From Escherichia coli (GTDB taxonomy: Bacteria > Pseudomonadota > Gammaproteobacteria > Enterobacterales > Enterobacteriaceae): a stretch of 64,000 nt of DNA. Below the pieces are notes generated by a model. The model was not told where the DNA came from. It saw only the letters and a program-made list of their open reading frames with translations, and did not search any database. The stretch is from NCBI RefSeq assembly GCF_003790525.1, contig NZ_CP033636.1; one strand, written 5' to 3'. Of the stretch, positions 796 through 16,934 are shown one piece after another (the stretch's first letter is position 1; every line of letters starts with the position of its first letter). The translations under genes were made by a program, and so were the position numbers.

Positions 796-802
796 TGAAA
801 AA

Positions 803-1437: not shown

Positions 1438-1743
1438 TTATGCATTTTCCTGATGGCCTTGACAACCAAGGATTTCACAGAAATTGTCACAGTGTGAAGC
1501 TGTAACAAAGCGCTCTCCACGTTCGAATCGCTCAACCAAATCCTTTCTTACTTCACTTCCAGGTTTCTGGAAGATGTACTCAAGCTGGAGATCCTCGGCC
1601 GTAGAAAGTAGTCGTTCTATGCTGAAATCAACATGGTAAAAGCAAAACTGATTATCAACCGGGGGAAAGTTGCTTTTGGTACTGTTCTCGTTTTTGGATT
1701 TTAGTTCATTCATGAGCTCTCCTTGGTTGAGAACAGTATACAA
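1438..1743 (-). CDS. hypothetical protein (101 aa) with Cys/His cluster near C-terminus
   Basis: ORF track; C-terminal HCDNFCEILGCQGH cluster; no further assignment possible. Confidence 0.4.
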   Translation of the reverse strand: MYTVLNQGELMNELKSKNENSTKSNFPPVDNQFCFYHVDFSIERLLSTAEDLQLEYIFQKPGSEVRKDLVERFERGERFVTASHCDNFCEILGCQGHQENA

Positions 1744-1912
1744 ATCTCTTTAGGGATTTTTTTTCGTTAATAGCACTTTTTTGAGTTTAAAGAGTATGTT
1801 CATACCAGAGCATTAGAGGCTACGAAAAGGATAATGGAATTAGAAAGATAGATTTTAAGTGGTGATGTAAGGTGGGATAGGTAGAAGAGGAGTAGACGCT
1901 TGTAAGCGAGGC

Positions 1913-1937
1913 AAAAAAAAGGCACGGAAACCGTGCC
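1913..1937 (-). terminator. putative intrinsic terminator closing the long minus-strand operon
   Basis: GGCACGG-AAA-CCGTGCC hairpin (1921-1937) adjacent to A8 run on plus strand, i.e. hairpin followed by U8 on the minus-strand transcript, 40 nt downstream of the stop of the 1977-2939 gene. Confidence 0.55.
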
Positions 1938-1976
1938 ATAAGAGTATGTGAGAAAAAATCAAAATCAGGGAAAGAA

Positions 1977-2939
1977 TCAAGCAGCTTGTGAAACTGAATC
2001 TCCAACTGCAAGATTTAAATTTCTTAGGTTATCGAAAACTTCAGATACTAAGTCATTACGGTCGTGGATTTTAATCCGCCCACCGGTTAACTCTGAAACA
2101 TAAACGGTATGGCAGAGGTCAGTAACCACTTCGCCGTATTCATCAACGACTTCCAAAGATGCAATCATCGGAATATAAGAAGCCGCAGCATAGCTCTCAT
2201 AAATACTTATTATGGAGTCATTGTTGCGTCGAGAAATTACCCTACCAGAAGGTAAAGCCTCATCTTCCATATAGCAATCAGATAGGTCCTCACAGAAGTC
2301 ATTTTCTTTAAGTGAAATATTAAGGGTCAATTCACTGTTGATAGAGCGTGAATAAGAATATTCACTCAGTTTATAGCAAGCCAAACTAATATCACTAAAA
2401 GTTTCATAAGCTTTATAGAGGCTCGATGTTATAGACTCAGATACAAATGTTATTAGTCCAATAAAATGAGTATCCCAGAACTGTTGCAAAGCAAAACGGG
2501 CAATCATAACCTGACCATCAACCTGCATCAGTCTGTTATATTCATCCCGGTCATAACCTTTCGACTGAGAAACATCATTAGACATGCTAAGAACTTCACT
2601 ACAAACATCATCATATTCAAAACGACTAGTTGCAAAGTGTTTTCCTGAAATTTCAAGGTACTGACCAGAGACTGCGTCAAACACCTCAAGAAAGTAACAG
2701 AGTCGCGATTTTAAAGATTCTCTGTTTAAAGCTTCTATTTCATTCTCAGAGATACTATCGACATATAAATCAACAACATTCTTGAGTTCAATAGCTTTGA
2801 TATTACAGGTAAAAGAAAGCTCGTCACTTTGACAATGGCAAACACTTAATACTATATCCGCCTCATCAAAATCTATGCCAAGATAACTCAGAACTGCTCG
2901 GACATAGTTTTTATCATCAGATGAATGTGTCATATACAC
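1977..2939 (-). CDS. hypothetical protein, member A of tandem ~300-aa paralog family
   Basis: ORF track 320 aa; shares clear sequence blocks with the next gene upstream (VDGQVMIARFALQQFWDTHF vs VDGKVLVAKFALKQFFHSDF; DRNDLVSEVFDNLRN vs DRTLLITEAFDDFRN). Confidence 0.6.
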   Translation of the reverse strand: MYMTHSSDDKNYVRAVLSYLGIDFDEADIVLSVCHCQSDELSFTCNIKAIELKNVVDLYVDSISENEIEALNRESLKSRLCYFLEVFDAVSGQYLEISGKHFATSRFEYDDVCSEVLSMSNDVSQSKGYDRDEYNRLMQVDGQVMIARFALQQFWDTHFIGLITFVSESITSSLYKAYETFSDISLACYKLSEYSYSRSINSELTLNISLKENDFCEDLSDCYMEDEALPSGRVISRRNNDSIISIYESYAAASYIPMIASLEVVDEYGEVVTDLCHTVYVSELTGGRIKIHDRNDLVSEVFDNLRNLNLAVGDSVSQAA

Positions 2940-3104
2940 TACCTCGAATTTGAGAGGAAGTGCCCCAGAAGGGAAGCGACTTCCCCACTGGGTTAGATAA
3001 AAATTTGGTTAAGCTAAAAGAAGATGCCAGCGACAGATTTTACATTGTCATAGACAAGTGTCTTCAGCCAACCAAAGTTACTTTTTTGGACTGAAGCAAA
3101 AGGA

Positions 3105-4043
3105 TCATTGAGACGCGTTACGAAAATCGTCAAAAGCTTCAGTTATTAGTAATGTGCGATCAGTTACTCTGTATCGGTCATTACTTTCGAGAGATACGTA
3201 AGTTGAATGCGAAGAATCACAGACAACACGCCCTCTTTTATTGATCAATCTTACTTCCATCATCACCGGCACATTGATAATTGAAGCAACATCGGTATAG
3301 AGGGATATGAGGGCATCATTGTCACAATATAACGCCCCGTTCCCATCAAATGTATCGTTAAACTTAATATATATATCTGGCATATTTGCCGGATAATCAT
3401 CAGTATTGAAATCAATGCATAACTTTAAGTCATCATTAATACGGCGATTAATCTTATGCTGCCCTACACGTACAAAGCCATGTTCAACAGCTTTGATAAT
3501 CCTTAAAGTTTCATTAAGACAATCTGTAATTCTTTTCTCGACAAATGAGATAAAGTCACCAAAGTCGGAATGAAAAAACTGTTTAAGTGCAAATTTCGCA
3601 ACTAACACTTTCCCATCCACCTTCATTTTATCGAGATAAAGATTTCTTATAGCATCAGTAGAAGAATTAGCTTTAGATAACTCTTCACAGTCATTAATAA
3701 TCATTGAAACAATATCAATAACTTTAACTGGGCTTAAAGTATTACTATATCCGCGAATATCAAACGTAAAAAATCCGAAATTCTTAAATACTCCAAGAAA
3801 ATAAATTATTTTTTGTTTCAAAAGAATAGAATCGGAGTAAGATGCGTTGTGCTTTATTAGCTCAGATATGTAGAGATCCAACATACAATTTAAATTATCG
3901 ATATCTACATCGTAATCAAAGGTTACTTTGTCGAACGAAGTATCAGATAATTGAACGGTTATATCGTCAGCGGAAACATTAAGGCCTAAATTTTGATAAA
4001 GAAAGGCACTAACAAATTCCACGTGGTCAGATTCTTTAAACAT
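3105..4043 (-). CDS. hypothetical protein, member B of tandem ~300-aa paralog family
   Basis: ORF track 312 aa; paralogous to 1977-2939 (see shared blocks). Confidence 0.6.
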   Translation of the reverse strand: MFKESDHVEFVSAFLYQNLGLNVSADDITVQLSDTSFDKVTFDYDVDIDNLNCMLDLYISELIKHNASYSDSILLKQKIIYFLGVFKNFGFFTFDIRGYSNTLSPVKVIDIVSMIINDCEELSKANSSTDAIRNLYLDKMKVDGKVLVAKFALKQFFHSDFGDFISFVEKRITDCLNETLRIIKAVEHGFVRVGQHKINRRINDDLKLCIDFNTDDYPANMPDIYIKFNDTFDGNGALYCDNDALISLYTDVASIINVPVMMEVRLINKRGRVVCDSSHSTYVSLESNDRYRVTDRTLLITEAFDDFRNASQ

Positions 4044-4061
4044 TTACACTACCTCATGACT

Positions 4062-4106
4062 AAAAAGGAAGTGCTTCCCACCGGGAAGCAGGTTCCCGGA
4101 TGGGTT
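4062..4106 (-). terminator. intergenic compound GC hairpin (putative terminator/attenuator)
   Basis: Nested inverted repeats CCCATCCGGGAA...TTCCCGGTGGG and GGAAG..CTTCC with A5 on plus strand = U5 after hairpin on minus transcript; lies between stop of 4110-5030 and start of 3105-4043. Confidence 0.4.
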
Positions 4107-4109
4107 AGA

Positions 4110-5030
4110 TTAATTATAAAAGAGTTCTTCAGAAGGTACATGCATTTCTGGTTTGAACTGTTTTAAGGAGTTGTTTATAGCTTTTCGATATAACCCTGAA
4201 GAGTGTGGCTTAAACATTTGATATTCCGTAACGAGCAGAGGAGACGTAAAGCATCCTAAGTTCACTAGTGAAATACTTGATGTTTCTTCACAAACATCTA
4301 ATTCAGCGTATATCCGCCTCTTCATTACCCTGCCTGCTAAATAGCGACGAACATGATTTATAAACTTGTCCGCATCTGATATAGAATTAACTATATAATC
4401 AGATGTGACTATCTGATTAGATACAGTTTCAGGTATAGCTTCGGCTATTATTTTTACGTTCATTTCATAATCAACACTATGGAAGCAAGCAAGAATTTGT
4501 GGCTTCGCGCTTTCTAAAATCTTTTCAAGAACAGAAAAAATCAGAGAGAACTCGTTTAAAATTCGCTTTTGTATAAGTCCATGTAGATGTTTTATGAAAG
4601 GAGAACCGTGTTCAACAAGGCCTAGTATAAGATCCTTAGAGGCCAAATCTGAGCGGTAATAAACGTATTCTAGATTATCCCGGTTAAATCCTTTGAAAAG
4701 CAAATCAGGCTGCTCTGAGACCAGTCGTAAATGAGTTGAAGCTATAGAAACTTCAAAACGAAAGTTCGCGAGATTTACAGGACCTGCTTTTAATGTAGCC
4801 GCTTCGGAAAAATAAATGAAAAGAGGATGCAAATCATCGTTACCACTGTAAAGATGGTCTGCACCCTTAAGATATTTCACCAAATGAGGTAGAAAAGATA
4901 TTACTGGAATATCAGCCACAAATCGAATATGCCGAAATGGTTTTGAATCCAAATATATATTTTCCACTACAGCGCCAACAAAACCCATTTTAACAAGAAT
5001 AGATTCAACTAACTTTTGTATAGCATTCAT
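4110..5030 (-). CDS. hypothetical protein (~300-aa family, divergent member)
   Basis: ORF track 306 aa; N-terminal motif KLVESILVKMG resembles N-termini of the 5099-6049 and 6105-6983 products. Confidence 0.55.
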   Translation of the reverse strand: MNAIQKLVESILVKMGFVGAVVENIYLDSKPFRHIRFVADIPVISFLPHLVKYLKGADHLYSGNDDLHPLFIYFSEAATLKAGPVNLANFRFEVSIASTHLRLVSEQPDLLFKGFNRDNLEYVYYRSDLASKDLILGLVEHGSPFIKHLHGLIQKRILNEFSLIFSVLEKILESAKPQILACFHSVDYEMNVKIIAEAIPETVSNQIVTSDYIVNSISDADKFINHVRRYLAGRVMKRRIYAELDVCEETSSISLVNLGCFTSPLLVTEYQMFKPHSSGLYRKAINNSLKQFKPEMHVPSEELFYN

Positions 5031-5098
5031 TTCAATACCCTCTTAATAGAGGGATTTCTCCCATAGGGAGAAATCCCTATGGGAGAAAATAATTTTAA

Positions 5099-6049
5099 TT
5101 AATAATTATAGCGAAGCGCATGTTCTTTTTCACTAAGATGGTTTTCATATTCCGACTTACCAGAACTTAAACACTCTTTGAAAAAGACCTTTGAAAAATT
5201 CTTCAAGTCACTTCGGTTATTAATTTCTTTGTCAGACATCAACTTAGCTGAGTGTGAGGTATCAACAGGCCCCAACCACCATTCATATTTAATATAAACA
5301 CAATTGGTTTGTGTATGTCCATTTAGAAATCGTTTTGCATTTCTAAGTATTTTTCTACAACCGTTAAGGTCTGAAAGTAAGATATCTGGAGCAATGAGCT
5401 CTTCCAGAATATGACCAGGTAAGCCTTTCCTAAAAAGCTCAACATCGTAACTACAATACCAGTCACGATAATTAAAAGCTTTAATAAGTCTTTCAGGTGT
5501 ATCCAAAGATATCTTATTCAGGATTTTTAATGCAAAGCATACAGCATCTTTTAACAACTCGTGCACCTCAACATTGATAAATGAGAAAAACGAGCTTAAT
5601 TCTTTCTCTAAGGAATTATACAACTTACCGTAAATATCCTGAGAAAAAAGATACTGCAATCTTTCTTTATTATAAGTGCAATTCGAAATTGAATAGACTT
5701 CTCCTCTTTCGATTTTGCACCCTTCCCTTAAAACTATAGGAAACCTCAAATGGTTAACAAAGAAAGAATGATTCTTTCTTTGCTTCAAAGCATCTAATTG
5801 AAATTTCGTAATTTCCTCCAGATTTGCATCTTCAAAACCTGGAAAGGGAATATCACAGAAACAAGAACTATATGCTTTTGCTGATTCATACATAAACTCC
5901 AGTGAAACATCAGCATCAAAAGACATACCAGAGAACATGCCCTGCCCATTGTCTAAAAATGTAATGTTTTTAACCTGTATTTTTTTATGTTGAACAACCA
6001 AAAAGGCATTAATGATTTTTTCGATAATTTTCATGTGATCCTCTCTCAA
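5099..6049 (-). CDS. hypothetical protein (~300-aa family, divergent member)
   Basis: ORF track 316 aa; N-terminal KIIEKIINAFLV motif; true start may be the internal Met at residue 6. Confidence 0.55.
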   Translation of the reverse strand: MREDHMKIIEKIINAFLVVQHKKIQVKNITFLDNGQGMFSGMSFDADVSLEFMYESAKAYSSCFCDIPFPGFEDANLEEITKFQLDALKQRKNHSFFVNHLRFPIVLREGCKIERGEVYSISNCTYNKERLQYLFSQDIYGKLYNSLEKELSSFFSFINVEVHELLKDAVCFALKILNKISLDTPERLIKAFNYRDWYCSYDVELFRKGLPGHILEELIAPDILLSDLNGCRKILRNAKRFLNGHTQTNCVYIKYEWWLGPVDTSHSAKLMSDKEINNRSDLKNFSKVFFKECLSSGKSEYENHLSEKEHALRYNY

Positions 6050-6050
6050 T

Positions 6051-6094
6051 AAAAAAAGGGATCACTCCCATATGGGGTGTGATCCCCACATGGG
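6051..6094 (-). terminator. intergenic compound GC hairpin (putative terminator/attenuator)
   Basis: GGGATCAC...GTGATCCC and CCCATATGGGG inverted repeats preceded by A7 on plus strand (U7 after hairpin on minus transcript). Confidence 0.4.
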
Positions 6095-6104
6095 TATAAT
6101 TTAA

Positions 6105-6983
6105 TTAAAAATCTGTAAGACCTAAATCTTTATTTCTACCACAAACTGTAGAAGATATAAGACGTTTTACTCGCTTTCGAGCACTTCGGCCTGACGTATC
6201 TTTCAAGTACATCGGTAATGACAATGATGAAATTTGATTACTTCGCTTATGATGGCAGACTATATAGCCCTGCCTCCACCCCGAACGCACAAACTCACGG
6301 ATGCGGTTAATATATGCCGAAGCTTGAGATTTTGTACTTATCGATTCAGAACACTTTAAGTTCTGTTCGATAGAGTAAAGCTCAGCCGCCATGAATTTCA
6401 CCTCATACAGCTCATCGCCATAACTTATAGTTTTCAACAGCTCTTCCTTTTCCCGAATGAAAAATACTTGCTGCATTCCAAGGATCAGGTCATAGGCCTC
6501 TCGAAAGAGGTCGATAAGCTTATTACGAACATAAATCATAAACTCCTCAAAGTGCTGAAGCCAGAAATAAGCCGCATTACTTATTTGTGAATTGTGAGAA
6601 CAAACAAGCCCTTTAGCAAGCTCGACCTCTTCCTCCCGAAAAGTAAAGTTACTTTTCTTAAACCGACTTTGTTCAAAAATGCTTTGATGCATTTCTATCC
6701 ATACAGAAACAAAACCGAGGGATTCAAATTCTTCGTTTAACAAATGTAAACTTTCGAAGATTTTCTGAATTTCGATCCCGATGTCATATGACAGTGGACA
6801 TTCTTTTATAGAATAAACATAACCGGGTAGGAAGTGAGATAAATGCTCAGTTCGCAAATATAAACTGAATTTAAGTTCTGTCAGTGGTTGTTTCAAAGAT
6901 AACTTAGATGATTCGCTTATATTTACTGGTTCAACGCCATTTCTAATCAAAATAGCTTTTACCAGGTCCGTAGCTAACTTCAT
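6105..6983 (-). CDS. hypothetical protein (~300-aa family, divergent member)
   Basis: ORF track 292 aa; N-terminal DLVKAILIRNGV motif shared with neighbours. Confidence 0.55.
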   Translation of the reverse strand: MKLATDLVKAILIRNGVEPVNISESSKLSLKQPLTELKFSLYLRTEHLSHFLPGYVYSIKECPLSYDIGIEIQKIFESLHLLNEEFESLGFVSVWIEMHQSIFEQSRFKKSNFTFREEEVELAKGLVCSHNSQISNAAYFWLQHFEEFMIYVRNKLIDLFREAYDLILGMQQVFFIREKEELLKTISYGDELYEVKFMAAELYSIEQNLKCSESISTKSQASAYINRIREFVRSGWRQGYIVCHHKRSNQISSLSLPMYLKDTSGRSARKRVKRLISSTVCGRNKDLGLTDF

Positions 6984-7061
6984 ACAGCCTCCATTCGTTA
7001 TTGAGGCCTCCCTGATGCAGGTTGGCCATCAGGGAAAATATGTAAATCAATTAGCAATCAA

Positions 7062-7583
7062 TCAGACCGTTGCCATGACATTGTCAATGTATCTGACAAG
7101 GGATGGGCGGTCGTCCTGTAAGGCAAAACGGCGAAGGTCATCAAGATTATACGCAGGAAGATAATCAGCGTAACCTCGAATACGAAGGTCCTCAACCACA
7201 ACTTTTATATACTCAAATCGTCCAAGATTCCCTTTTAATGGGGGTTTTCCTGGACTAGACAGCATATCGTCTGCTTGCTCCCATGTGATTTCTTTAGCTT
7301 CACCACTATGTAGATCAAGATGGACATATATGAATGACTTATAATCTCCACGGCAACGAAGATAATATTTCGGATAGAAATATTTGTCACAACGCAACAA
7401 ACACGTTCCTGAAGGACGAACTACGTACAACAGGTTTCTGTCATTTTCTAATATGCTATGTTTCAAAATCGTTATATCTATCTCATTATCATGCAGCAAA
7501 TAGCATGACGATGGTTCATTGACGATGCGCGATTTTATAACAGCAGCAAATTTATTAAAAACTTCGTTAATTTGAAAATTCAT
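7062..7583 (-). CDS. hypothetical protein (173 aa)
   Basis: ORF track; within the co-directional gene string; no motif recognised. Confidence 0.5.
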   Translation of the reverse strand: MNFQINEVFNKFAAVIKSRIVNEPSSCYLLHDNEIDITILKHSILENDRNLLYVVRPSGTCLLRCDKYFYPKYYLRCRGDYKSFIYVHLDLHSGEAKEITWEQADDMLSSPGKPPLKGNLGRFEYIKVVVEDLRIRGYADYLPAYNLDDLRRFALQDDRPSLVRYIDNVMATV

Positions 7584-7774
7584 TAAAATGCTCTCCGATG
7601 TAAAACGACGAGCATCACCATAACGGTAATACTCCCGTTATGGGTTTTAATAGTTTATGGAATAACCATGTCATACAACCGACCATAGCCAGTAGTACCG
7701 CACATTTATTTAACTGAGCAAGCATCTCAGCCGTGAAAAGACCTTAAAGGCAGGTAATTATCACGAAGGAAAGC

Positions 7775-7822
7775 GGTTATCTTATCAATACAATTTTAAA
7801 ATATAATATTGATAAGATAACC
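7775..7822. promoter_or_regulatory. perfect 16-bp inverted repeat (GGTTATCTTATCAATA / TATTGATAAGATAACC) with 16-nt AT-rich spacer; candidate operator or structured site
   Basis: Read directly from sequence at 7775-7790 and 7807-7822; sits between primase stop (7854) and the next gene start (7583). Confidence 0.35.
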
Positions 7823-7841
7823 CCCCCCGCAAAAAGCGGGG
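7823..7841 (-). terminator. putative intrinsic terminator after primase gene
   Basis: CCCCCGC-AAAAA-GCGGGGG hairpin directly downstream of the 7854-9158 stop codon on the minus strand. Confidence 0.45.
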
Positions 7842-7853
7842 GAGTTATCGTTG

Positions 7854-9158
7854 TTACAGCTGATTAAGACATTCAGGAGCCCAGTGAATCGGGAATCCAT
7901 CCTGCCCTGTTAACTGGAGAACATCGTTCCAGTCGATACCCTTTTTCCCATCAGGAATATCTTGTGCTGGTTCGAAGACTTCAATTGTCAGCTTTGATGC
8001 GGGATATCGTTTAGCCAAAAACTCAACCATGCGGCTTTGAAGTCGCTGAGCAGCTTCAATACCGGCACGAGTGCCTTGTGAGTTAGCAATATCCTTATCC
8101 GCCCAGATATAAAAGTTTATAGATTTTACATCCGGCGGAGGCAGTAAAAAATCAGGAACAGTAACGTTTTCAAGGCACCATGCGGAGCTGGCTGCCCAGC
8201 ATGGTGTTGAAGTCGCTTCTACAACAGAAAGCGCGTTCTCGATCCCTTCAGCCACTCCCAGTGTCCAGGTCGAACTACCTGAATCATAGTGAGGGTCAAA
8301 CAACTGAATTGAGCCACCTGTCATATCGGCAGGAGGCTTCATCATCAGCTTTGGATTTTCTACAGGTGCCTTATCACCATTTTTGTCTACGTATGTTCTA
8401 TGAATAGTCAGAGGCCGACCTCGGGTGTCACGATAGATCGCAATCATTCCCGGATAGATAATCGATTTCTGCTTATCTTTATCCCAATAGTAGATCCGGT
8501 TATTAAAGCCTAAATCCTTTGGTAAGTGACTCAGTAAGCGGGAGATCCCACGATTACGGAGGTACAAAGCAACAGGAGTATTAGGCTTGATTTCACCGGT
8601 ATAGTGATACATCACATCAAGTTTTCGCATTCGCTTTGCCACTTCCTCTCGGTCAAGAGTTTCTGTGGCACGAACTGCTGATTTATAGCGTCGTTCATTT
8701 TCAATGTCGGCGTCAGTTAACGGAGCATGCAGATCCATCCCGAAAAAATCTGAGAGAATCTTTTTGCAAGTCTGCGTTTTACTTAATTCATAATATTTCG
8801 CCAGAACATCAATTCCGTCGCAAAACTCATTTACCGGAAAGTCATTATGGATCGCACATCCGGTATAAAGGTCTTTTTGTCGGAAACGAAACTTCGATTT
8901 CCCTGCGCCAGTAAACGGGCAAGGAACCTGGCTCGGGGCTTTTGCACAAGCGTCTTTGAAAGCAGGTATTCTTTCGAATATATACTTCCAGCCAGACACT
9001 TCAGCAATTCGAGCATGAACGAGTTTAATAAAGTGTTCAGATACTTCCTGTGGATTACGACGAAGAGCCGGGGATGCATAAGTCATGATGATCTCTCTTA
9101 TCTGGCATTGTGAGTTTCTCAATGCCTTCTGCGGTGCAGAAGACAGGGAGAAACCCAC
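7854..9158 (-). CDS. DNA primase (zinc-ribbon CHC2-like motif plus Toprim domain)
   Basis: ORF track 434 aa; CPFTGAGKSKFRF...C...H motif typical of primase zinc-binding domains (P4 alpha / plasmid primase type) and Toprim-like GVAEGIENALSV...DKD segment. Confidence 0.65.
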   Translation of the reverse strand: MGFSLSSAPQKALRNSQCQIREIIMTYASPALRRNPQEVSEHFIKLVHARIAEVSGWKYIFERIPAFKDACAKAPSQVPCPFTGAGKSKFRFRQKDLYTGCAIHNDFPVNEFCDGIDVLAKYYELSKTQTCKKILSDFFGMDLHAPLTDADIENERRYKSAVRATETLDREEVAKRMRKLDVMYHYTGEIKPNTPVALYLRNRGISRLLSHLPKDLGFNNRIYYWDKDKQKSIIYPGMIAIYRDTRGRPLTIHRTYVDKNGDKAPVENPKLMMKPPADMTGGSIQLFDPHYDSGSSTWTLGVAEGIENALSVVEATSTPCWAASSAWCLENVTVPDFLLPPPDVKSINFYIWADKDIANSQGTRAGIEAAQRLQSRMVEFLAKRYPASKLTIEVFEPAQDIPDGKKGIDWNDVLQLTGQDGFPIHWAPECLNQL

Positions 9159-9199
9159 AACGCAGAATTTAAGAAAGAGGGCCCGGGGGCCCTCAACAT

Positions 9200-9421
9200 T
9201 TATGCTTCAGTCGTGAAGCCATTATTCTCAAGACACTGTATGTAGTTATCTACAAGTAACGCAGCCTGCTGGCTATTACCCTCCGCTATAGTGACTTCGC
9301 GGAAGATTCTTTCCTGAGGGCTATCATTGCTTATAACTTCACCAACACGTCCGAAAATACGGACTTTATGCATCGCACCGACTTTTTCATGTTCTACACG
9401 GTAAGTTTTTATCTGAGTCAT
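9200..9421 (-). CDS. hypothetical protein (73 aa)
   Basis: ORF track; flanked by intergenic hairpins in the operon; no motif. Confidence 0.4.
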   Translation of the reverse strand: MTQIKTYRVEHEKVGAMHKVRIFGRVGEVISNDSPQERIFREVTIAEGNSQQAALLVDNYIQCLENNGFTTEA

Positions 9422-9448
9422 ATTTTGCTCCTTATTCCTTCATGGAGC

Positions 9449-9485
9449 AAAAAGACCCACCGGGGCCTTTTGCCCCGATTGGGTA
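9449..9485 (-). terminator. intergenic GC hairpin (putative terminator/attenuator)
   Basis: CCCACCGGGGC...GCCCCGATTGGG imperfect inverted repeat with A5 on plus strand side. Confidence 0.35.
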
Positions 9486-9492
9486 GAGTTTA

Positions 9493-11505
9493 TTAAGAAA
9501 GTATTTGATGAACTAGCTTACTGACTTCAATAGACAATAAAGAAGTATCATCAACTGTTACGAAAGTGTCCGTTTCAAAACCAATTATTTCATCAGTCTT
9601 AATACCAACACCAACGATTTCTATTCCATTACATTTAGCCTTTTCCATAACTTCGCCGATAGTAAATTCCGATTTATTCGGATAACCATCAGTTATAAGA
9701 AAAATTATTTTCCTATCGAATTGGCTGTCAAGTAACAGATCAACAGCTGCCATTAAAGCCGATCCCGTAGGGGTATAATAACCCTTACATCCAAGAGTGA
9801 ATTTCGATAGAGATTCCTCAACGCTTTGATCAAACGTTTTGATAATCTCAAATTCACTTTCCTTGAAGGGAAAGACTATATTGGAGACATGCATTTTTGA
9901 CAAACTTTCAGCGGCCATCGATAAAGCAAGATCTGACTTAATGGCATGAATATATCTTTCATCATTAGCCATTGACGCTGAAATATCACGAACTAATACG
10001 AGGCCAACATGCCCTCTATTTTTAGATTCGCTTTGAGCTCTGAAGACATCACGAACTCCCATTGGTGACAGAATTAATCGATTTCCATCGAAGGTAATTC
10101 CACGCTCATGAGTTTTGTTTCGGCCACGCATTTTAACCTGCTGTAAAACAGACAAGTCGCTACCGATTGAATGACTCAGAGACAAAGCCTCATTGTAAAC
10201 ATTCAAATCGATAAGGAGATCAGGGATATCCCATTCAGAAGCACCGAATTCGGCTTTCACGTCATCGGATACTTTTGATGCAATACCTTCAATCTCTTCA
10301 GCCAAAGCATCGTGATAATCTTCGCTATCCTCATCACTGCCAAGAAAGGCATCCAACAAATCTGCCAGTATCTCCCATTGAGCCGATGAAAAGTTACTTT
10401 CATCTTCAACGTTAGTCGAACTGGCTTCATCTGATTCACTCTCGGAAGGGTTAATCGCATCAGTATCGTCTTCAATAATGTTATCACCTGTGGGATTGCC
10501 ACCGGTGGGTTCATTATTTCCCTCGTTATCTTCAGCAAGTTCTGAAGGCTCAGAACATCCCTCTTGAGCAAGATCAGAGTTATCGGAAGTATCTGCCTGA
10601 CCTTCACTATCGTCCTCAGAATCATCCTCACGACTATCAGTCGACTCAAGCGATTTATCTTCTGATTCGGTATCGGTATCGGTATCGGTCTCGGATTCAT
10701 CATATGCCTCCTGCTCCTCCTGCTCTGTCTGCTGCTGTTGTTCCCTTGCCTCATCCCGCAGTCTCTCTAAAAGAGCCAGGGTCTTACGAGCAAGGGATTC
10801 ACAGCCCTGAGTATTTTCACAACCAAGAGCATCATGAAAAATTTCCTCAACATCAGAAATTACTGGAGAAAGTATCTTTTGGGCATAGTCAAAAAACGGA
10901 TCGAGTGTTTCTTTGTGACCTGCCTGCTGAAGGACTTTTACTCGCAATGAGTTAAGCAGATACCACTCAATAAATAGGACAGGATTTTCCGGACGAGAAG
11001 ATATATCAGGAGTCATCCTTCCGGCTTTAACCATCAGTGCGTAAGTGGCTGCAAGCCGCCGCTTTGCATCCGGATAATCGTTACCAACCTTCTCTTCCAT
11101 CTGTACATCATCGAACAGATTTATAAGCCCGGTAAGACGTTTTGCCCTGCTATAAGCTTTACGTTTCTCAGCGAGGCTCTCAAACTCTGCATTCATTCCG
11201 TCATCGAAGCGTGTAAACCCTTCAGATGACTTGAGAACACTATTAAAGGCGTCACTGTAAACCTCGCTGTCGGTATAGCGACCATGACCAGCTTCATGAC
11301 AGGTAAAACCTTCAATCAGACTGACAAAGTCATCATCGCTATAATCGCCGTTTGGTAAAACACAAACTTTATTTACAGGATCAAAATACGGTCCTTTGGT
11401 ATTGTCGTCTATTACAACTCTTACATCGCCTAAGCCGCTAATGACTTTTGCTATATTCTGTAAACGCTTAATATGGCGCGGTGATGATTTAAGATCTAAT
11501 TTCAT
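9493..11505 (-). CDS. CobT-like protein: N-terminal domain, long acidic low-complexity linker, C-terminal von Willebrand factor A (VWA) domain
   Basis: ORF track 670 aa; C-terminal VGLVLVRDISASM (DxSxS MIDAS motif) followed by VWA-like pattern; central ~120 aa stretch extremely rich in D/E/S/T (ESETDTDTDTESEDKSLESTDSREDDSEDDSEG...), as in aerobic cobaltochelatase CobT-type proteins. Confidence 0.65.
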   Translation of the reverse strand: MKLDLKSSPRHIKRLQNIAKVISGLGDVRVVIDDNTKGPYFDPVNKVCVLPNGDYSDDDFVSLIEGFTCHEAGHGRYTDSEVYSDAFNSVLKSSEGFTRFDDGMNAEFESLAEKRKAYSRAKRLTGLINLFDDVQMEEKVGNDYPDAKRRLAATYALMVKAGRMTPDISSRPENPVLFIEWYLLNSLRVKVLQQAGHKETLDPFFDYAQKILSPVISDVEEIFHDALGCENTQGCESLARKTLALLERLRDEAREQQQQTEQEEQEAYDESETDTDTDTESEDKSLESTDSREDDSEDDSEGQADTSDNSDLAQEGCSEPSELAEDNEGNNEPTGGNPTGDNIIEDDTDAINPSESESDEASSTNVEDESNFSSAQWEILADLLDAFLGSDEDSEDYHDALAEEIEGIASKVSDDVKAEFGASEWDIPDLLIDLNVYNEALSLSHSIGSDLSVLQQVKMRGRNKTHERGITFDGNRLILSPMGVRDVFRAQSESKNRGHVGLVLVRDISASMANDERYIHAIKSDLALSMAAESLSKMHVSNIVFPFKESEFEIIKTFDQSVEESLSKFTLGCKGYYTPTGSALMAAVDLLLDSQFDRKIIFLITDGYPNKSEFTIGEVMEKAKCNGIEIVGVGIKTDEIIGFETDTFVTVDDTSLLSIEVSKLVHQILS

Positions 11506-11520
11506 AGAATACCTCTTTAT

Positions 11521-11567
11521 AAAAAAGGGGTACTCACCCAGATGGTGAAGTACCCATCTGGGGTTTT
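11521..11567 (-). terminator. intergenic compound GC hairpin (putative terminator/attenuator)
   Basis: GGGTACTCACC / GGTGAAGTACCC and CCCAGATGG / CCATCTGGG inverted repeats; A6 on plus strand = U6 after hairpin on minus transcript, just upstream of next RBS. Confidence 0.4.
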
Positions 11568-11582
11568 TAATAAAGCAAACAG

Positions 11583-12710
11583 TTACCAGCCTTTGAGCTC
11601 GATATCAAAACCATTTTCAACATTGTCTTCCTGTTGCGAAACTGATTTCTCAGGTTCAGCTACAGGATCAGTGTTTGAAAACGTGCTGTTATTTATATCG
11701 TTCTCTACGACAGGTTCAACCTGGAACACATTTGTTGAATCTAAAATAGCTTCAATACCTGTGTTCTGTAGCGCGTTCGGTTCTGTTTGTGAGCTTTGAT
11801 TAAATGATCTGGTAATAGATTCCAACCAGTCAGTAACCTTTTGCTCTCCTGAAATAATACGCTTTAACATTGAAGCATCACTCATGAAATAAAACCACTG
11901 CTGTAACACCGCAACGTCGCGAGGTTCAGAAATGGCACCTTTAGGTAAATTATTCATTATGTGTTTTATAGCTTCTGCAAGTACTGCCGCCTCTTTATGT
12001 ATAAACATGAAGCTAATGATCTTATTTTGCATTTGCTTCAGTCGGTCAATAGTACTTGAGCGCAAATTGTTATTTTTGCTAATTTTTTCATAAACCTTCA
12101 TTGCTTCTTCTGCCAGATCTGTTATCAATTGTTCCTGATAGTAGTCCTGGGTTTCATCACCTTCAACGCTAATAGGCGTAAAAGGAATAAAGTGAGCAAT
12201 ATTAAATCTAAAGGATTTTATGAAATCATCTTTAGTTAATTTCAACTGATCAATCAAAGAAGACATTCTTGGGCTTCTATTTTTTTCAGCCTCAATATGC
12301 ATCTCATAATTGTCTACAACGTTTTGAATACCTGCCTGAAACTCTCGTTCAATCTCTTGGGCCCCTTCCAGAAACTCTTCCATACTGGATACTGGTAAAA
12401 TCCACATATTGCTATAGCGGATGCACAAGCGTGAGCAAAGAGTTGATATTCTGCTGGTAATCGTACTTTTGAAGCTAAGGGCTTTTATGTCAATCCAGCG
12501 TACTTCGCTTTTAGATACGCTTTTTTGATCCGTAATATCATCTCCATCATAAGACAAATCGATTTTATCGGTTCGACGCGATCCTTGACAGCCACTTATT
12601 TCAATTTTTGTTATAACTGCACCTTCCAGTAAATCTGGATATGATTTTGCAAAATTCTCAGAGATTTGTTTTGCAGATACTTTGTTAAGCATTGAAGTAT
12701 TTAAAGTCAT
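11583..12710 (-). CDS. hypothetical protein (~375 aa)
   Basis: ORF track gives 11583-12722, but the codon at 12722-12720 is TTG; the ATG at 12710-12708 with GGAG 7 nt upstream is a more plausible start. No motif recognised. Confidence 0.5.
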   Translation of the reverse strand: MTLNTSMLNKVSAKQISENFAKSYPDLLEGAVITKIEISGCQGSRRTDKIDLSYDGDDITDQKSVSKSEVRWIDIKALSFKSTITSRISTLCSRLCIRYSNMWILPVSSMEEFLEGAQEIEREFQAGIQNVVDNYEMHIEAEKNRSPRMSSLIDQLKLTKDDFIKSFRFNIAHFIPFTPISVEGDETQDYYQEQLITDLAEEAMKVYEKISKNNNLRSSTIDRLKQMQNKIISFMFIHKEAAVLAEAIKHIMNNLPKGAISEPRDVAVLQQWFYFMSDASMLKRIISGEQKVTDWLESITRSFNQSSQTEPNALQNTGIEAILDSTNVFQVEPVVENDINNSTFSNTDPVAEPEKSVSQQEDNVENGFDIELKGW

Positions 12711-12720
12711 GGGTTTCTCC

Positions 12721-12770
12721 AAAAAAAAGGGGAAACCCTCCCCAACGGGAAAGATTTCCCGATAGGGTTG
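12721..12770 (-). terminator. intergenic compound GC hairpin (putative intrinsic terminator)
   Basis: GGGGAAACCCTCCCC and CGGGAAAGATTTCCCG hairpins; A8 on plus strand = U8 following hairpin on minus transcript. Confidence 0.45.
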
Positions 12771-13078
12771 ATATTAAAGCTTCTCTGGTGAAATTAAAAG
12801 AATACCGGGAAACTCAGCAACAACATCATCATTGCCCATTGCTCCCTGATACATATAACCTTTTAATTCCATTTGTTTAATCAGACCTTCCATATTTATT
12901 TTACCATCATGATAAAACAATAAAGAATAGTCGTTATTCAGTTGCATAAGTCCAGTAAAATTAGTTCCGTTTTTTGCTATAGCAATGGTAGCAGCACCAT
13001 CCGTACTTAAAAACGCACTAAATTCAAGATGGGATAACTCTGAGATACAAATATCAGAGGTTTCATAACAAATCCCAT

Positions 13079-14137
13079 CTAACTCGACTTTTTTGCTGTG
13101 AAATACTCCAGCGATTTATCCTTGTCTTCGCCAAGAGAAAGATCTATAGCTTGAAGAACAAGATCGACCACATGTAAAGGTAAAGCAGAAGCAAAAGCTA
13201 TTTTGAAAGTGTCAAGAAGACTAAAGGTTTTTAACGTCATCGACGTGCCAACCCAAGCTACTAATTGACGAATATCCATCACACTGTCTTCTGTACCAGA
13301 GTCATTTACTGCAATCGCTACTCTTACGAACTTCTCAATGACCTGAAAAGGCAAAGAGCTATATCGTTTAGTAAGCACATTGGTTAAAGCAACTTTGTCG
13401 GGCTTCTCCATTTCAACTATCAAGAACCGCTTTATAAAAGCTGCATCTTGACGTTGAGAAGAAACGAACCGGCGAGCGCCTCCACTCATGTTTGTGTTTG
13501 CAGTACCAATAAATCGCGTGTAGCCATTAGCAGTTATAACCTCACCACCATTAGCACTGAGTGACCAGGGCTTACGTTCAATGGGCATGTGAAGTTTTGC
13601 TGCCGTATCAGGATCGATTTTGTCCACTTCATCCAGAAGAATGAGGTGACCATTACGAAATCCCGTTACCAAATCGCTGTGTACAAAACCTGTATTACCA
13701 CCATTAAGACTGCGCTCACCTTCAAGCTCATCAACTCGAATATTGCTGTTGATCTGCTTAATTGTCAGCGGCCAATTCATCATGTGGCTAATGTACATTA
13801 CCATTTCAGTCTTGCCAGAACCGGACTCACCTTTAAGACACACACTTAAATCTATATCCGGACTGATAAGCAGTTTAACCACTTGTTCAAGTATTCGGGG
13901 ATTTGGTATGTAGTCTTTGTTCAGCGGAGCTCGATACGAGGTTTTAGTTTTGAAAACAGGCACAGCCATCTTTGGATCCATTTCTGGAATACCAAAAAGG
14001 TCCTTTGCTAGAACTAAAAGATACTCACCTTTATCCACATAATGTTTTAACTTTATAACATCCGGGGAAAGAAGAGCTTCTAATTTTTCATAAGCATCAG
14101 AAGATGTTTCATTTAACTTCATAGCGGCATTAGACAT
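13079..14137 (-). CDS. AAA+ ATPase, MoxR/CobS-like
   Basis: ORF track 352 aa; Walker A GESGSGKTE, Walker B hhhhDE (LILLDEVDK), size and motif spacing as in CobS/MoxR-class ATPases; encoded in the same operon as the CobT-like VWA protein. Confidence 0.7.
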   Translation of the reverse strand: MSNAAMKLNETSSDAYEKLEALLSPDVIKLKHYVDKGEYLLVLAKDLFGIPEMDPKMAVPVFKTKTSYRAPLNKDYIPNPRILEQVVKLLISPDIDLSVCLKGESGSGKTEMVMYISHMMNWPLTIKQINSNIRVDELEGERSLNGGNTGFVHSDLVTGFRNGHLILLDEVDKIDPDTAAKLHMPIERKPWSLSANGGEVITANGYTRFIGTANTNMSGGARRFVSSQRQDAAFIKRFLIVEMEKPDKVALTNVLTKRYSSLPFQVIEKFVRVAIAVNDSGTEDSVMDIRQLVAWVGTSMTLKTFSLLDTFKIAFASALPLHVVDLVLQAIDLSLGEDKDKSLEYFTAKKSS

Positions 14138-14194
14138 TTTTAACTCCGGTAAAATGCAAACACCGCCCTCTGGCAGATGTTTGCCAGTGGCATT

Positions 14195-15172
14195 TTATTT
14201 GAGATTCATTTGGCAAATAGTTGCCATCAGTTTCCTGATTTGAGGCACATTATAACCAAGATGATTTCCCACTATTTCAAAAGCTTCAGACATGATCCAT
14301 TCAAAATGATTTTCGAATATTGGATTGATTTCTAACTTGCCAAAAGCGTTTCGTTTAGTTAACAGATCACATGAAACAAGCTCGTCAAACAACTCTAATG
14401 TGGATTTAAAAGCTTTTATGTAAACATCCATAATTTCCCTGTCAGTCCATTTAACAGCCAGTTTTTTTTCTGACATTAAATAATCCTGATCAAAGAAGAT
14501 GTCCCAGCCCATATCGTCATTGCAATCATGCAAAATGATTTCATCATCATTCCTGCATTCAGCTAATTTCGTGTTTTCACTAATCGAACGATGCGAATGA
14601 TAATAGAGCCATGATTTTAATTCCGCTCTAAATTCACATGCATCAAGTCCATGACATAAACAAGTGTATTCAAATGATTTTGACATATACCACCGTGTTT
14701 CAGCTTCTAAAAGTGGATTCACTGTGATATTACCATTGTCATCTTTGAAGAATAACTTTCTCCTCAACACTAGTTCTTTAATGATTTCCAAAGACTCTTC
14801 CATAGCGGATAGAAAAACAACATACACATCCTCAGGGGTCCATTCTATTACCAGACCACCCAAATCTGGGTTATATTCTTCAACCGTATATAGATAATCT
14901 GTTTCTGCTGCAAAATTAATTGTATGCAAAATCTGATTTTTAAGTAATTTGGATTTTTCATAAAGGTGATTTTCACGCCTTTCAGAATCATAATTTATCT
15001 CAGAAATGTTACTTTCTTCTGATTTAAAGTTTAATCCGGACGTGTAAGCATCATTTAAATGCTCTTTGGGTGAATCAACTATTTGCGTTATTTCATCTTC
15101 ATCTATATCGAGTATAGAAAAAAAACTAAGTTGATTACTACTTATTGCAGTAGCCCTAAATTTTTGTTTCAT
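14195..15172 (-). CDS. hypothetical protein (325 aa)
   Basis: ORF track; no motif recognised. Confidence 0.5.
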   Translation of the reverse strand: MKQKFRATAISSNQLSFFSILDIDEDEITQIVDSPKEHLNDAYTSGLNFKSEESNISEINYDSERRENHLYEKSKLLKNQILHTINFAAETDYLYTVEEYNPDLGGLVIEWTPEDVYVVFLSAMEESLEIIKELVLRRKLFFKDDNGNITVNPLLEAETRWYMSKSFEYTCLCHGLDACEFRAELKSWLYYHSHRSISENTKLAECRNDDEIILHDCNDDMGWDIFFDQDYLMSEKKLAVKWTDREIMDVYIKAFKSTLELFDELVSCDLLTKRNAFGKLEINPIFENHFEWIMSEAFEIVGNHLGYNVPQIRKLMATICQMNLK

Positions 15173-15180
15173 GGGGACTC

Positions 15181-15225
15181 CAAAAGGAGAAATCCCATGA
15201 AGGGATTTCTCCCCTTTAGGGTGGG
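15181..15225 (-). terminator. intergenic compound GC hairpin (putative terminator/attenuator)
   Basis: GGAGAAATCCC-ATGAA-GGGATTTCTCC perfect inverted repeat between 14195-15172 and 15233-15610. Confidence 0.4.
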
Positions 15226-15232
15226 TTTAATG

Positions 15233-15610
15233 TCAGATCTGATTAAAGCTACTTTGTCCAAAACCTTTTAGAGGTTTAGGTATGTGAGCCAACTTACTTG
15301 TTGCTACCACTCTCATGTAGTCAAGAGGATGTTCTCTCCCTTCAATCATAATAGTATCGACAACAATATAACCGGAGACCATCAACTCATCACCCTGATT
15401 TATACCAGTGAAACAGGTTGAATACATTTCAGGCGACACCTTGATTTGAACTGAAAATTCTCTCTCAGTGATTTCACCATCAACTTCTGTCTTCATCCTA
15501 TTTTTGAGCTTTATTAACAAACCTATACTCTGGTCAGTCATTTTTTTCTCCACAGCACTGATAACTATCCCGGACACTTTTACTTCATTGATATATTCAA
15601 GATATGACAT
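15233..15610 (-). CDS. hypothetical protein (125 aa)
   Basis: ORF track; beta-rich pattern loosely reminiscent of OB-fold proteins but not assignable. Confidence 0.45.
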   Translation of the reverse strand: MSYLEYINEVKVSGIVISAVEKKMTDQSIGLLIKLKNRMKTEVDGEITEREFSVQIKVSPEMYSTCFTGINQGDELMVSGYIVVDTIMIEGREHPLDYMRVVATSKLAHIPKPLKGFGQSSFNQI

Positions 15611-15667
15611 TTTCCGCTCCTCGATTTGTTCAAAGAGAAGCCCCGTTAGGGTTCCCCCTTAACAGGA

Positions 15668-16540
15668 TTAAATAAATTTATTAGTTACATACATGAACGT
15701 GCAGACTACCAAACAGGCAATTCCGGCAATATGTAACCAATTTCTTGTTGGTTTAGTTGGTGCAATCGCTAAAGAGTTCTCCAACTTCTCTGTTACAAGA
15801 CGTCGATTCTCTGCTTTAGCCGCATCATCTAAATATTGAGTTTCACGCTTAGCGAGAGTCTCAATTTTCGATTTTATTGCATGGTCCCATCCTTTAGTTT
15901 CAAAAACGCTTAACTCACTAAAGGTGTGCGTCATGAGATCTTCTGGGAAACCCAGTTTTTTCATTAACGGACGAATGGTATCATACATTTTTTCTACATT
16001 TTCGTAGTGGGCCTTTACTGCGACATCAAAACGCTTACGTAAAGTTAATTTTTCACGTTTGCAAATGATGTCCGAAACCCAATTTATTAACTGCTCATTT
16101 TTGAGTTCACTGGCTTTTTCAAGTGAGTAATCCAGATTATCCACGTCAAGAAATGAATTTAATCCGTATTTTTCAAACTCCTCAACAAGATATTTATCCA
16201 GTTCAGTTAAGCTTTTAAAAAGTGGTACATCTGGGGAAGCTTTAAGAAGCTTATAAGCTCCTTCGAAATCAATTTTCTTGACCACGAGCTCCACAACATC
16301 CACATGATAATAGCTTGAATAAGCAGAAAGCTTTTCGGCCAACAAAGACACAGGCTTAAGAGACTTAAGTTCAATGATATTTGGGCCGTCCTCATTCAAA
16401 ATAACAATCAGTTCATTATCACGTTCTGTATATTTCATCAGAACTTCTAAGAGCTGTTTGTTTAGCGCCTTATCCATCTCTGGAATAATTTCACTAAAGG
16501 TTTGATGAAGGGCTTTACTGCGAGCTTTATTTTTAGACAT
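15668..16540 (-). CDS. hypothetical protein with C-terminal transmembrane anchor
   Basis: ORF track 290 aa; single hydrophobic helix at extreme C-terminus (WLHIAGIACLVVCTFMYV); first gene of the long minus-strand string. Confidence 0.5.
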   Translation of the reverse strand: MSKNKARSKALHQTFSEIIPEMDKALNKQLLEVLMKYTERDNELIVILNEDGPNIIELKSLKPVSLLAEKLSAYSSYYHVDVVELVVKKIDFEGAYKLLKASPDVPLFKSLTELDKYLVEEFEKYGLNSFLDVDNLDYSLEKASELKNEQLINWVSDIICKREKLTLRKRFDVAVKAHYENVEKMYDTIRPLMKKLGFPEDLMTHTFSELSVFETKGWDHAIKSKIETLAKRETQYLDDAAKAENRRLVTEKLENSLAIAPTKPTRNWLHIAGIACLVVCTFMYVTNKFI

Positions 16541-16934
16541 TTGGGGTCACCTATATATAGTAAGAAGGAAGAAACAATTTTTTGTTTCAACACGAAGGCA
16601 AAGCCTGTCATTCATCTCCCGTAAGCTATGAACCGCCTGATTTATACTATCTGGCATTAGAAGTACGCAACAAAAATAGCTCCAGGAGGAGCTAAATTAG
16701 TTACGGTTTGGTAAATTCAGATTGCCTTTTTCAGGCATGGGAAGTGCACCAGCGACAAAGGTGACATTTTGCCGGTGGTGTCTTACAGCTTGTTTAAGCT
16801 GGCCGCTTTTCACGGCTAAATCAACGCTTAACGCGAAAGTAACTTTAAGCAAAGTTACTCAAATTTGGGAGCTGATATTTAAGCTCATTGTTTTTATACT
16901 ATAGCTTTAAGCATAAGTAAATGCCCATATCGAA

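Follow-up and report, generated by a model that had tools for sequence, protein, structure and literature searches.

The closest described relative of the locus reported here is the hde (host defense evasion) operon of IncC plasmids and SXT/R391 elements, in which vcrx089-vcrx090 counter restriction and ssb-bet-exo repair CRISPR breaks (Roy et al., 2020; PMC7498323). Deletion of vcrx089-090 from an IncC plasmid reduces transfer 25-fold into Vibrio cholerae proficient for type I restriction-modification, a defect that is corrected when the genes are expressed in the recipient, though not in the donor, and that is gone in an hsdR mutant (Roy et al., 2020). In Escherichia coli, the same deletion increases restriction by EcoKI and EcoBI 400–900-fold (Dimitriu et al., 2024; PMC11602122), and "vcrx089_090" is a listed anti-defense system in AntiDefenseFinder. 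vcrx094, which encodes a DUF3150 protein, is on the same transcript as vcrx089-090 (Roy et al., 2020). Published work gives no role to the DUF3150 and VWA genes of this operon; in the literature that we searched, vcrx095 is not mentioned and DUF3150 appears in a single unrelated preprint. We analyzed a 64,000-nt stretch of E. coli DNA (contig NZ_CP033636.1; hereafter the window), which is the backbone of an IncHI2 plasmid, and describe a gene cluster at 1977–16540 that is real and conserved and is a variant of this partly characterized operon, not an unknown kind of system. The two have in common a trio of genes, encoding a MoxR/CobS-type AAA+ ATPase, a DUF3150 protein and a CobT-like protein with a zinc-peptidase motif and a VWA domain.

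The genes have also been encountered in the IncHI1 plasmid R27, where a nine-gene cluster, "R0204 to R0002," is induced 5- to 23-fold at 25°C, the conjugation-permissive temperature, and under other conditions that promote conjugation (Gibert et al., 2020; PMC7366339). The cluster was listed as "function not known," without domain analysis (Gibert et al., 2020). For the proteins themselves, the closest structural analogy is the cobaltochelatase CobS-CobT-CobN, for which cryo-electron microscopy reveals CobS as a ring motor and CobT as an adaptor, whose M48C-like N-domain binds CobS and which binds CobN on its VWA side, next to the MIDAS, an adhesion site that depends on a metal ion (preprint 10.64898/2026.07.21.739949).

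The 14,564-bp region is 100% identical to more than 1,000 IncHI2/HI2A plasmids (MOBH relaxase, MPF_F), with 1,088 records covering at least 80% of it. RefSeq annotates 15 coding sequences (CDS), all on the minus strand and separated by gaps of 41–165 bp, save for the gap from the primase gene to orf173, which measures 270 bp (Table 1). The cluster lies directly downstream of the Tra2 transfer genes (trhF-trhW-trhU-trhN) and of trhI, the helicase gene, and runs in the same direction as these. An initial annotation, made from the sequence and its open reading frames (ORFs), had described about 14.5 kb of tightly packed, co-directional genes beside the transfer region of a conjugative plasmid, and the RefSeq CDS, the gap lengths, the MOBH/MPF_F typing and the adjacency to trhN and trhI all agree with that description. 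The fifteenth gene that it listed as possible is the 57-aa ORF, which RefSeq annotates and which is conserved at the protein level in IncHI1. Ten of the 15 products have no match in NCBIfam, PHROGs or Pfam. Three had been assigned from the sequence: an AAA+ ATPase with Walker A and Walker B motifs, a 670-aa protein with a C-terminal VWA/MIDAS (DISAS) domain and a hyper-acidic linker of ~120 aa, and a Toprim primase. Each assignment holds on profile searches (AAA_5, with both motifs in place; Pfam VWA, with an invariant MIDAS; and DUF7146, Toprim_3 and PHROG 510 "DNA primase," the last at 1.7e-27, so that primase activity is predicted), although the linker is longer than first described. A fourth product is also assignable, to Pfam DUF3150, and the N-terminal HExxH domain of the VWA protein had been overlooked.

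The Walker A motif of the ATPase, GESGSGKT, occupies residues 103–110 (nt 13808–13831), and Walker B, LLDEVD, lies at about nt 13622–13645. Its solved relatives are midasin, NorQ, CobS and CbbQ; Pfam reports AAA_5 alone, CbbQ_C being undetected in the IncHI2 protein. By BLASTP the ATPase is 27% identical to Vcrx089 (2e-26) over nearly its full length (residues 47–303 of 352, with the alignment reaching the C terminus). The family profile of the VWA domain, for its part, finds NorD as its best solved match (4e-11) and CobT next to it (8e-10), so the AAA+/VWA pairing noted initially stands and is of the MoxR/CobS-CobT kind.

The CobT-like protein combines an M48-like N-domain, a disordered linker and the VWA domain. 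Residues H70, E71, H74, R76, D133 and E137 of the N-domain are invariant across relatives that share only ~20% identity, and the domain has the features of a gluzincin, namely the HExxH motif, a downstream acidic ligand (the D133/E137 pair) and a zincin fold. Pfam CobT matches the N-domain in 11 of 16 relatives; a Foldseek search of the domain against the PDB returned nothing significant, and its sequence profile did not reach CobT in the PDB. In the VWA domain, the MIDAS residues D507, S509, S511, T578 and D606 are invariant in all 16 relatives. With an unvarying HExxH motif and D133/E137 pair on an M48-like fold, the adaptor seems equipped for catalysis, and we infer that it may be a peptidase.

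The DUF3150 protein is predicted to consist of a confident portion (residues 20–320, predicted local distance difference test score 84) in which a small β-sheet is joined by helical bundles, followed by a disordered tail that ends in ...ELKGW. The family is large, with 1,331 clusters at 50% identity in a large protein library. A tblastn search with the IncHI2 protein against 50,697 phage records gave no match, and a word-indexed protein search retrieved close relatives only. The C terminus (window 11583–11760) has a recurrent form: after a disordered linker, the last residue is aromatic in 127 of 142 diverse members (F in 96, W in 26 and Y in 5), the typical ending being "DDEDxFF." Relatives of Vcrx090 (in IncC, L004:13947-14855) end likewise in ten cases out of ten, for example in "EQEDHFF," "DIDDDYF" or "DTDDRWF." The tails of both families resemble the C-terminal tip of single-stranded DNA-binding protein (SSB), which suggests that they may have a docking site in common.

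How constant is the association of these three genes? A scan with the AAA+ alignment, using one genome per species, yielded 27 loci from Enterobacterales, Chromatiaceae, Methylococcales, Halomonas, Alcanivorax, Marinomonas and others, and in every locus with enough downstream flank the ATPase gene was followed by a DUF3150 gene and then a VWA gene. The loci fall into three layouts: IncC/SXT-like; Chromatiaceae/Methylococcales-like (ssb-bet-exo-AAA+-DUF3150-VWA, sometimes followed by a Toprim gene); and IncHI. Contigs that were retrieved independently, starting from distant DUF3150 proteins, contain the same neighbors (AAA_5/CbbQ_C, RecT, YqaJ and VWA/CobT). Outside IncHI the trio is usually beside ssb-bet-exo; within IncHI, Bet and Exo are undetectable. 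IncHI1, IncHI1B and IncHI2 all contain the string helicase-orf290-orf125-orf325-AAA+-DUF3150-VWA-orf73-primase-orf173, and a primase linked in this way to the trio is confined to IncHI; in some other elements a primase gene occurs a few kilobases downstream. The five-gene array at the far end of the cluster occurs in IncHI1 and IncHI2 only and is absent from IncHI1B. Co-conservation with the neighbors, which the initial annotation had proposed as a check on the AAA+/VWA pairing, therefore holds for the core, extended by DUF3150, and fails for the gene set as a whole. Since the loci seeded with AAA+ and with DUF3150 agree, while phage loci lack DUF3150, the invariant unit in conjugative elements is the trio, with DUF3150 as its signature.

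The phage loci in question are the "cobT-cobS" pairs, in which a MoxR ATPase is joined by a metallopeptidase-vWA co-chaperone and both domain architectures are represented (Iyer et al., 2021, PMC7824862; Liu et al., 2021, PMC8651126). Their CobT-like proteins have HExxH in 32 of 33 cases and DxSxS in all 33. However, the pairs comprise two genes in reversed order (VWA, then AAA+ directly downstream), DUF3150 is found in none of the ~45 such loci with enough flank, and the phage ATPases are distant, scoring ~1e-30 with the ATPase hidden Markov model (HMM), compared with 1e-75 to 1e-137 for conjugative elements. NorQ-NorD and CbbQ-CbbO likewise pair an AAA_5 ATPase of the CbbQ/NorQ clade with a VWA/MIDAS protein but activate metabolic enzymes (nitric oxide reductase and Rubisco). 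To our knowledge, neither has an N-terminal HExxH domain or a DUF3150 partner. CobS-CobT-CobN is the nearest in plan, with a CobS-type AAA+ motor, an adaptor built of an M48C-like N-domain, a disordered linker and VWA/MIDAS, and a third protein. It differs in that this third protein is the much larger CobN instead of a DUF3150 protein of ~375 aa and in that the setting in IncHI2 is conjugation and not B12 synthesis. In the IncHI2-type family, HExxH is invariant. The IncHI2 scores are also far below the chelatase cut-offs (34.4 bits against 558.55 for the CobS equivalog TIGR01650, and 33.5 bits against 779.45 for the putative cobaltochelatase TIGR02442).

Compared with the hde operon, the IncHI2 locus has a homologous AAA_5 ATPase, the same position downstream of traN/trhN in a MOBH/MPF_F backbone, and DUF3150 and CobT-like VWA genes in the same gene string. 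Both the SXT operon and the R27 cluster are co-regulated with transfer genes, and in SXT the strongest SetCD peak is at the promoter of the homologous operon. The IncC order, however, is AAA+-vcrx090-ssb-bet-exo-DUF3150-VWA, with a Toprim gene ~5 kb further, whereas in IncHI2 the AAA+, DUF3150 and VWA genes are contiguous, without detectable Vcrx090, Bet, Exo or canonical SSB, and the unit adds a Toprim primase, orf290, orf125 and orf325. The IncHI2 operon may work like the vcrx089_090 system, yet we do not file it as a member because Vcrx090, a defining feature of that system, is undetectable, as are Bet, Exo and canonical SSB. The initial annotation, which could not match the locus to any described system, was thus correct insofar as the R27 cluster is listed as "function not known," but there is a partly characterized relative in the IncC/SXT hde operon with its vcrx089_090 unit. 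Its guess that the locus acts in plasmid establishment or anti-defense agrees with the anti-restriction exerted in the recipient by Vcrx089 with Vcrx090, evidence that belongs to the IncC homolog.

If these genes serve the same end in IncHI2, how might they act? We propose, with about an even chance of being right, that IncHI plasmids have in this region their own form of a backbone operon common to MOBH/MPF_F elements (IncHI, IncC, SXT/R391 and relatives) and that this operon has a role in entry and host defense evasion, exerted through a three-part remodeling or proteolytic machine. The homologous genes are expressed together with transfer genes in the two relatives studied, and the operon would serve the plasmid as it enters a new cell. 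The motor would be a hexamer of the MoxR/CobS-type ATPase. On it would dock the M48-like N-domain of the CobT-like adaptor, the VWA/MIDAS domain of which would hold the partner, with the DUF3150 protein in the place that CobN has in cobaltochelatase. The machine would remodel or cleave host proteins that threaten the incoming plasmid DNA, type I restriction enzymes being the precedent. The Toprim primase and possible SSB-like protein added by the IncHI unit, together with the TrhI helicase encoded upstream, could help to convert and establish the transferred strand, and orf173 and the five-gene array would form a separate, fast-evolving accessory block. What we say on function, from the assembly of a complex and the part played by DUF3150 to peptidase activity, the target and any phenotype in IncHI2, is carried over from homologs at 20–27% identity or from the orthologous plasmid.

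A more far-reaching version, which we offer tentatively and consider rather doubtful, is that the trio is an unrecognized three-component, ATP-driven remodeling protease common to all MOBH-type elements, which would disable host barriers such as type I restriction on entry. DUF3150 would serve as an exchangeable client or specificity subunit, as would Vcrx090 in IncC-type elements, each recognized through its disordered, acidic, aromatic-ended tail, and the anti-restriction activity of vcrx089-090 would be just one of the outputs of a larger machine.

Several observations count against assigning the locus to host defense evasion. A single-sequence HMM of IncC Vcrx090 has no match in the window or the IncHI loci, and there is no match to Bet, Exo or SSB HMMs in the 64-kb window or in the IncHI loci L002, L003, L009 and L010. 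Because Vcrx090 is undetectable, the two-gene anti-restriction unit is incomplete in IncHI2. Profile-profile comparison did not alter this picture: the ten-member Vcrx090 family gave hhalign probabilities of at most 1.7% with orf325, orf290, orf173, the gene-array families and DUF3150, and the hunt for equivalents of Vcrx090, Bet, Exo or SSB among orf290, orf125, orf325 and the array was negative, bar a non-significant alignment of orf125 to SSB. The 27% identity to Vcrx089 would leave room for functional divergence. A structure search with the DUF3150 model retrieved no informative solved relative. Transposon insertion sequencing in IncC flagged vcrx089-093 only and not the DUF3150 or VWA genes (Roy et al., 2020), although, because the Cas+ and Δcas recipients compared both restrict, this result leaves room for a role of the latter. 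In SXT, deletions of s067, s068 and s070 changed transfer between unrestricted E. coli by 10-fold or less. Finally, natural plasmids carry insertion sequences (IS) in these genes: IS1 in the AAA+ gene of H31 (NZ_CP091320.1), ISKpn26 splitting the VWA gene of a Klebsiella IncHI1B plasmid (L003:15468-16654) and IS903 in orf125 of an IncHI1 plasmid (L002:10741-11709). The AAA+, VWA and orf125 genes are therefore dispensable for plasmid maintenance.

The main alternative, which we consider unlikely and which draws on the gene context, casts the trio as a chaperone for DNA transactions of the incoming strand, one that would load, recycle or remove nucleoprotein complexes (SSB, annealase/exonuclease, primase and helicase) while the complementary strand is made and recombinational repair proceeds. 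In elements other than IncHI, ssb-bet-exo or RecT/YqaJ/PDDEXK genes almost always adjoin the trio or are interleaved with it; in IncHI, it is flanked by genes for a UvrD-like helicase and a Toprim primase and accompanied by a possible SSB-like ORF. Such a role would also suit the SSB-like tips of the DUF3150 and Vcrx090 tails and the clamp-binding-like motif of orf325. However, IncHI retains the trio without Bet or Exo and, since the defect of the IncC Δ(vcrx089-090) plasmid vanishes in an hsdR-null recipient, restriction rather than replication appears to be the limiting step in IncC.

It is improbable that the trio acts in the donor as a chaperone-protease for assembly or maturation of the conjugative apparatus (the H-pilus or type IV secretion system), in the manner of the MoxR-VWA pairs proposed for assembly of virus particles. 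The cluster does lie at the end of the Tra2 transfer region, its R27 counterpart is thermoregulated like the tra genes, and virion assembly and proteolytic processing are the proposed roles of a phage MoxR/peptidase-vWA pair. Nonetheless, transfer of the IncC Δ(vcrx089-090) plasmid to an unrestricting recipient is normal, its complementation works from the recipient side and not from the donor, and the SXT deletions described above, which fall in the homologous region, had small effects. Systematic deletion in Rts1 identified 32 genes for efficient transfer, which include bet, exo and the s063 homolog but no AAA+ or VWA gene, and the IS-disrupted natural variants are still typed as conjugative.

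We give equally little credence to a plasmid-borne MoxR-vWA "conflict system," which would defend the host cell against phages or compete there with rival plasmids. MoxR-vWA modules are described as components of predicted conflict systems, and the adjacent five-gene array evolves fast. But PADLOC defense models find nothing beyond weak P-loop or helicase similarity among the cluster products, the trio occupies a fixed backbone position in all MOBH element families instead of a variable hotspot, and the IncC homolog acts for the incoming plasmid. A genuine cobaltochelatase that boosts vitamin B12 synthesis, as older "aerobic cobaltochelatase CobS" annotations imply from the distant similarity to CobS and CobT, can be virtually dismissed, given the TIGR01650 and TIGR02442 scores, a DUF3150 protein as the third conserved partner, a context of conjugation and recombination genes, and no gene annotated as CobN in the annotated 38.6-kb neighborhood (by annotation, without an explicit CobN profile search).

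The initial annotation treated 1977–16540 as one operon, which is probably incorrect. In R27, R0005 is trhN (Gibert et al., 2020), and position 1 of the R27 sequence falls inside the R0204–R0002 cluster. From these two anchors and the gene order, we infer that the nine R27 genes are the orthologs of orf290, orf125, orf325, the AAA+ gene, the small ORF, the DUF3150 gene, the VWA gene, orf73 and the primase gene (window 7854–16540). Gene for gene, the IncHI2 proteins are 58–81% identical to their IncHI1 counterparts, and the proteins of the IncHI1 plasmid are largely identical to those of R27. This orthology, the hairpin after the primase gene (7844–7822), which is likely the end or an attenuation point of the nine-gene unit, the 270-bp gap before orf173 and a closing hairpin (1937–1921) together make it probable that the region comprises a nine-gene thermoregulated unit (7854–16540) and a separate block of orf173 and the five-gene array (1977–7583). 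These boundaries derive from the orthologous plasmid and from consensus scans, and the promoter and terminator calls are consensus matches.

Terminator-like GC hairpins are more frequent across window 1–19500 than in shuffled sequence (30 versus 12.7 ± 3.5), and many fall in the short gaps of the cluster, for example at 16694–16677, 14176–14163, 12760–12730, 9479–9459, 9194–9177, 7844–7822, 5055–5088, 4090–4072 and 1937–1921. Among the gap hairpins, one that separates two array genes is a perfect palindrome of 15 bp. Roles in transcript processing, stabilization or attenuation are possible. Rfam contains no known RNA family that matches 1–20000.

Table 1. Genes, domains and hairpins of the IncHI2 cluster and its upstream neighbor, in window coordinates
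Feature	Position	Strand	Inferred R27 gene	Basis and remarks
trhI, UvrD/Rep-like helicase	16935–18719	minus		NCBIfam Rep/UvrD, 7e-53; annotated TrhI
Terminator-like hairpin in the 394-bp gap from trhI to the first cluster gene	16677–16694	minus		Consensus scan only
orf290, first gene of the unit	15668–16540	minus	R0002	C-terminal hydrophobic, membrane-anchor-like segment
orf125, candidate SSB-like OB-fold protein	15233–15610	minus	R0001	Suggestive only
orf325	14195–15172	minus	R0210	Acidic (isoelectric point 4.7); two internal repeats of ~85 aa; conserved N-terminal Q-[LM]-[SD]-F motif
MoxR/CobS-type AAA+ ATPase, homolog of IncC Vcrx089	13079–14137	minus	R0209	Pfam AAA_5, 9e-28
Small ORF, 57 aa	12774–12947	minus	R0208	Local alignment score 139 to IncHI1 ORF; absent in IncHI1B
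DUF3150 protein (Pfam PF11348)	11583–12722	minus	R0207	Pfam, 3.8e-23; precomputed Pfam assignment agrees
CobT-like protein, 670 aa	9493–11505	minus	R0206	HExxH N-domain, acidic linker and VWA/MIDAS
M48-like zincin N-domain, residues 1–252	10750–11505	minus		HExxH and acidic pair, M48-like fold; HEAGH at nt 11284–11298
Hyper-acidic disordered linker, ~residues 255–420	10246–10743	minus		Up to 21 D/E per 40 residues
C-terminal VWA domain, complete MIDAS	9496–10023	minus		Pfam VWA, 8e-7
orf73, between VWA and primase genes	9200–9421	minus	R0205	Conserved in IncHI1 and IncHI1B
Toprim primase, last gene of the unit	7854–9158	minus	R0204	DUF7146, 4e-19; Toprim_3, 7.5e-12; RefSeq start 9086
GC-rich hairpin, 9 pairs (8 G-C), directly after the primase stop codon	7822–7844	minus		Consensus scan; same place as the end of the thermoregulated R27 cluster
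orf173	7062–7583	minus		hhalign probability 90%, E = 1.5e-6, to the IncC L004:21623-22057 family (downstream of the VWA gene)
Five-gene array, ~300 aa each (6105–6983, 5099–6049, 4110–5030, 3105–4043, 1977–2939)	1977–6983	minus		Partly paralogous
Intrinsic-terminator-like hairpin with T8, end of the five-gene array	1921–1937	minus		Consensus scan

Among the remaining genes of the nine-gene unit, orf290 has no match in Pfam, NCBIfam or PADLOC but does have an ortholog in IncHI1B (24% identity, 2e-19). The HMM of orf173, which is also present in IncHI1B, matches orf290 at 2e-5, and orf290 reaches an hhalign probability of 40% with the IncC ORF L004:21623-22057. orf290, orf173 and this small ORF downstream of the IncC VWA gene have a domain in common. 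orf125 is conserved in IncHI1 and IncHI1B, the IS903-disrupted L002 (IncHI1) copy aside. Against the SSB OB-fold profile, it aligns in full-length register (N.V.vsG...GD.LmvsG), which is not significant (E = 0.06); it has a conserved C-terminal tail, PKP..GFG.S.F. orf325 has no family match and, by hhalign, no relation to Vcrx090. Its N-terminal motif (window 15110–15172) reads QLSFF in IncHI2, QMDFF in IncHI1 and QLSF in IncHI1B and resembles the β-sliding-clamp binding motif, QL[SD]LF.

The products of the five-gene array have no family matches, and a word-indexed protein search with the 3105–4043 product retrieved close relatives only. Their identity between IncHI2 and IncHI1 is 48–64%, compared with 76–82% for the core genes. 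The initial annotation had called the array a diversified paralog family. Paralogy is clear for 1977–2939 and 3105–4043 (27% identity, 6e-37), weak for 4110–5030 and 5099–6049 (1e-4) and probable between this second pair and 6105–6983 (hhalign probability 53–62%); a relationship of the first pair to the other three genes was not demonstrated.

At the borders of the cluster, trhI lies directly upstream, outside the coordinates of the initial annotation, and the synteny of gene and cluster is kept in every IncHI type (L002, L003, L009 and L010). A 290-aa lipoprotein gene (18899–19771, plus strand) is encoded on the opposite strand between trhN and trhI, and in the same place in IncHI1. An opposite-strand ORF of similar size comes after traN in IncHI1B, and another is present in IncC and SXT-like loci, together with the s063-like gene; the likeness noted is one of size and place. 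Below 1977, small co-directional genes continue (window 803–1743; L001:1-11737). Of these, orf101 and orf196 are kept in IncHI1B directly after orf173, and the stretch that contains them leads to a Tus-like replication-terminus protein, a tyrosine recombinase and an Hha-family regulator.

Among the major carriers of mcr, NDM and further resistance genes are IncHI2, IncHI1, IncHI1B and IncC plasmids and SXT elements, and the trio is present in all of these backbones. Of its members, the ATPase alone has a phenotype so far, in IncC, and the paper that described it spoke of a novel mechanism of anti-restriction that was still being studied. As far as the literature that we searched reveals, the trio as a unit and its peptidase motif have not been described for conjugative elements. 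The constant company of ATPase, adaptor and DUF3150 protein, the intact zinc-peptidase motif and the shared terminal peptide signature therefore lead to a testable model of motor, adaptor-protease and client. Should the model hold, it would account for the passage of very large plasmids across restriction barriers between species and would offer a conserved target for blocking their spread. If the trio instead serves replication or recombination, it would be a new accessory factor for establishing transferred DNA.

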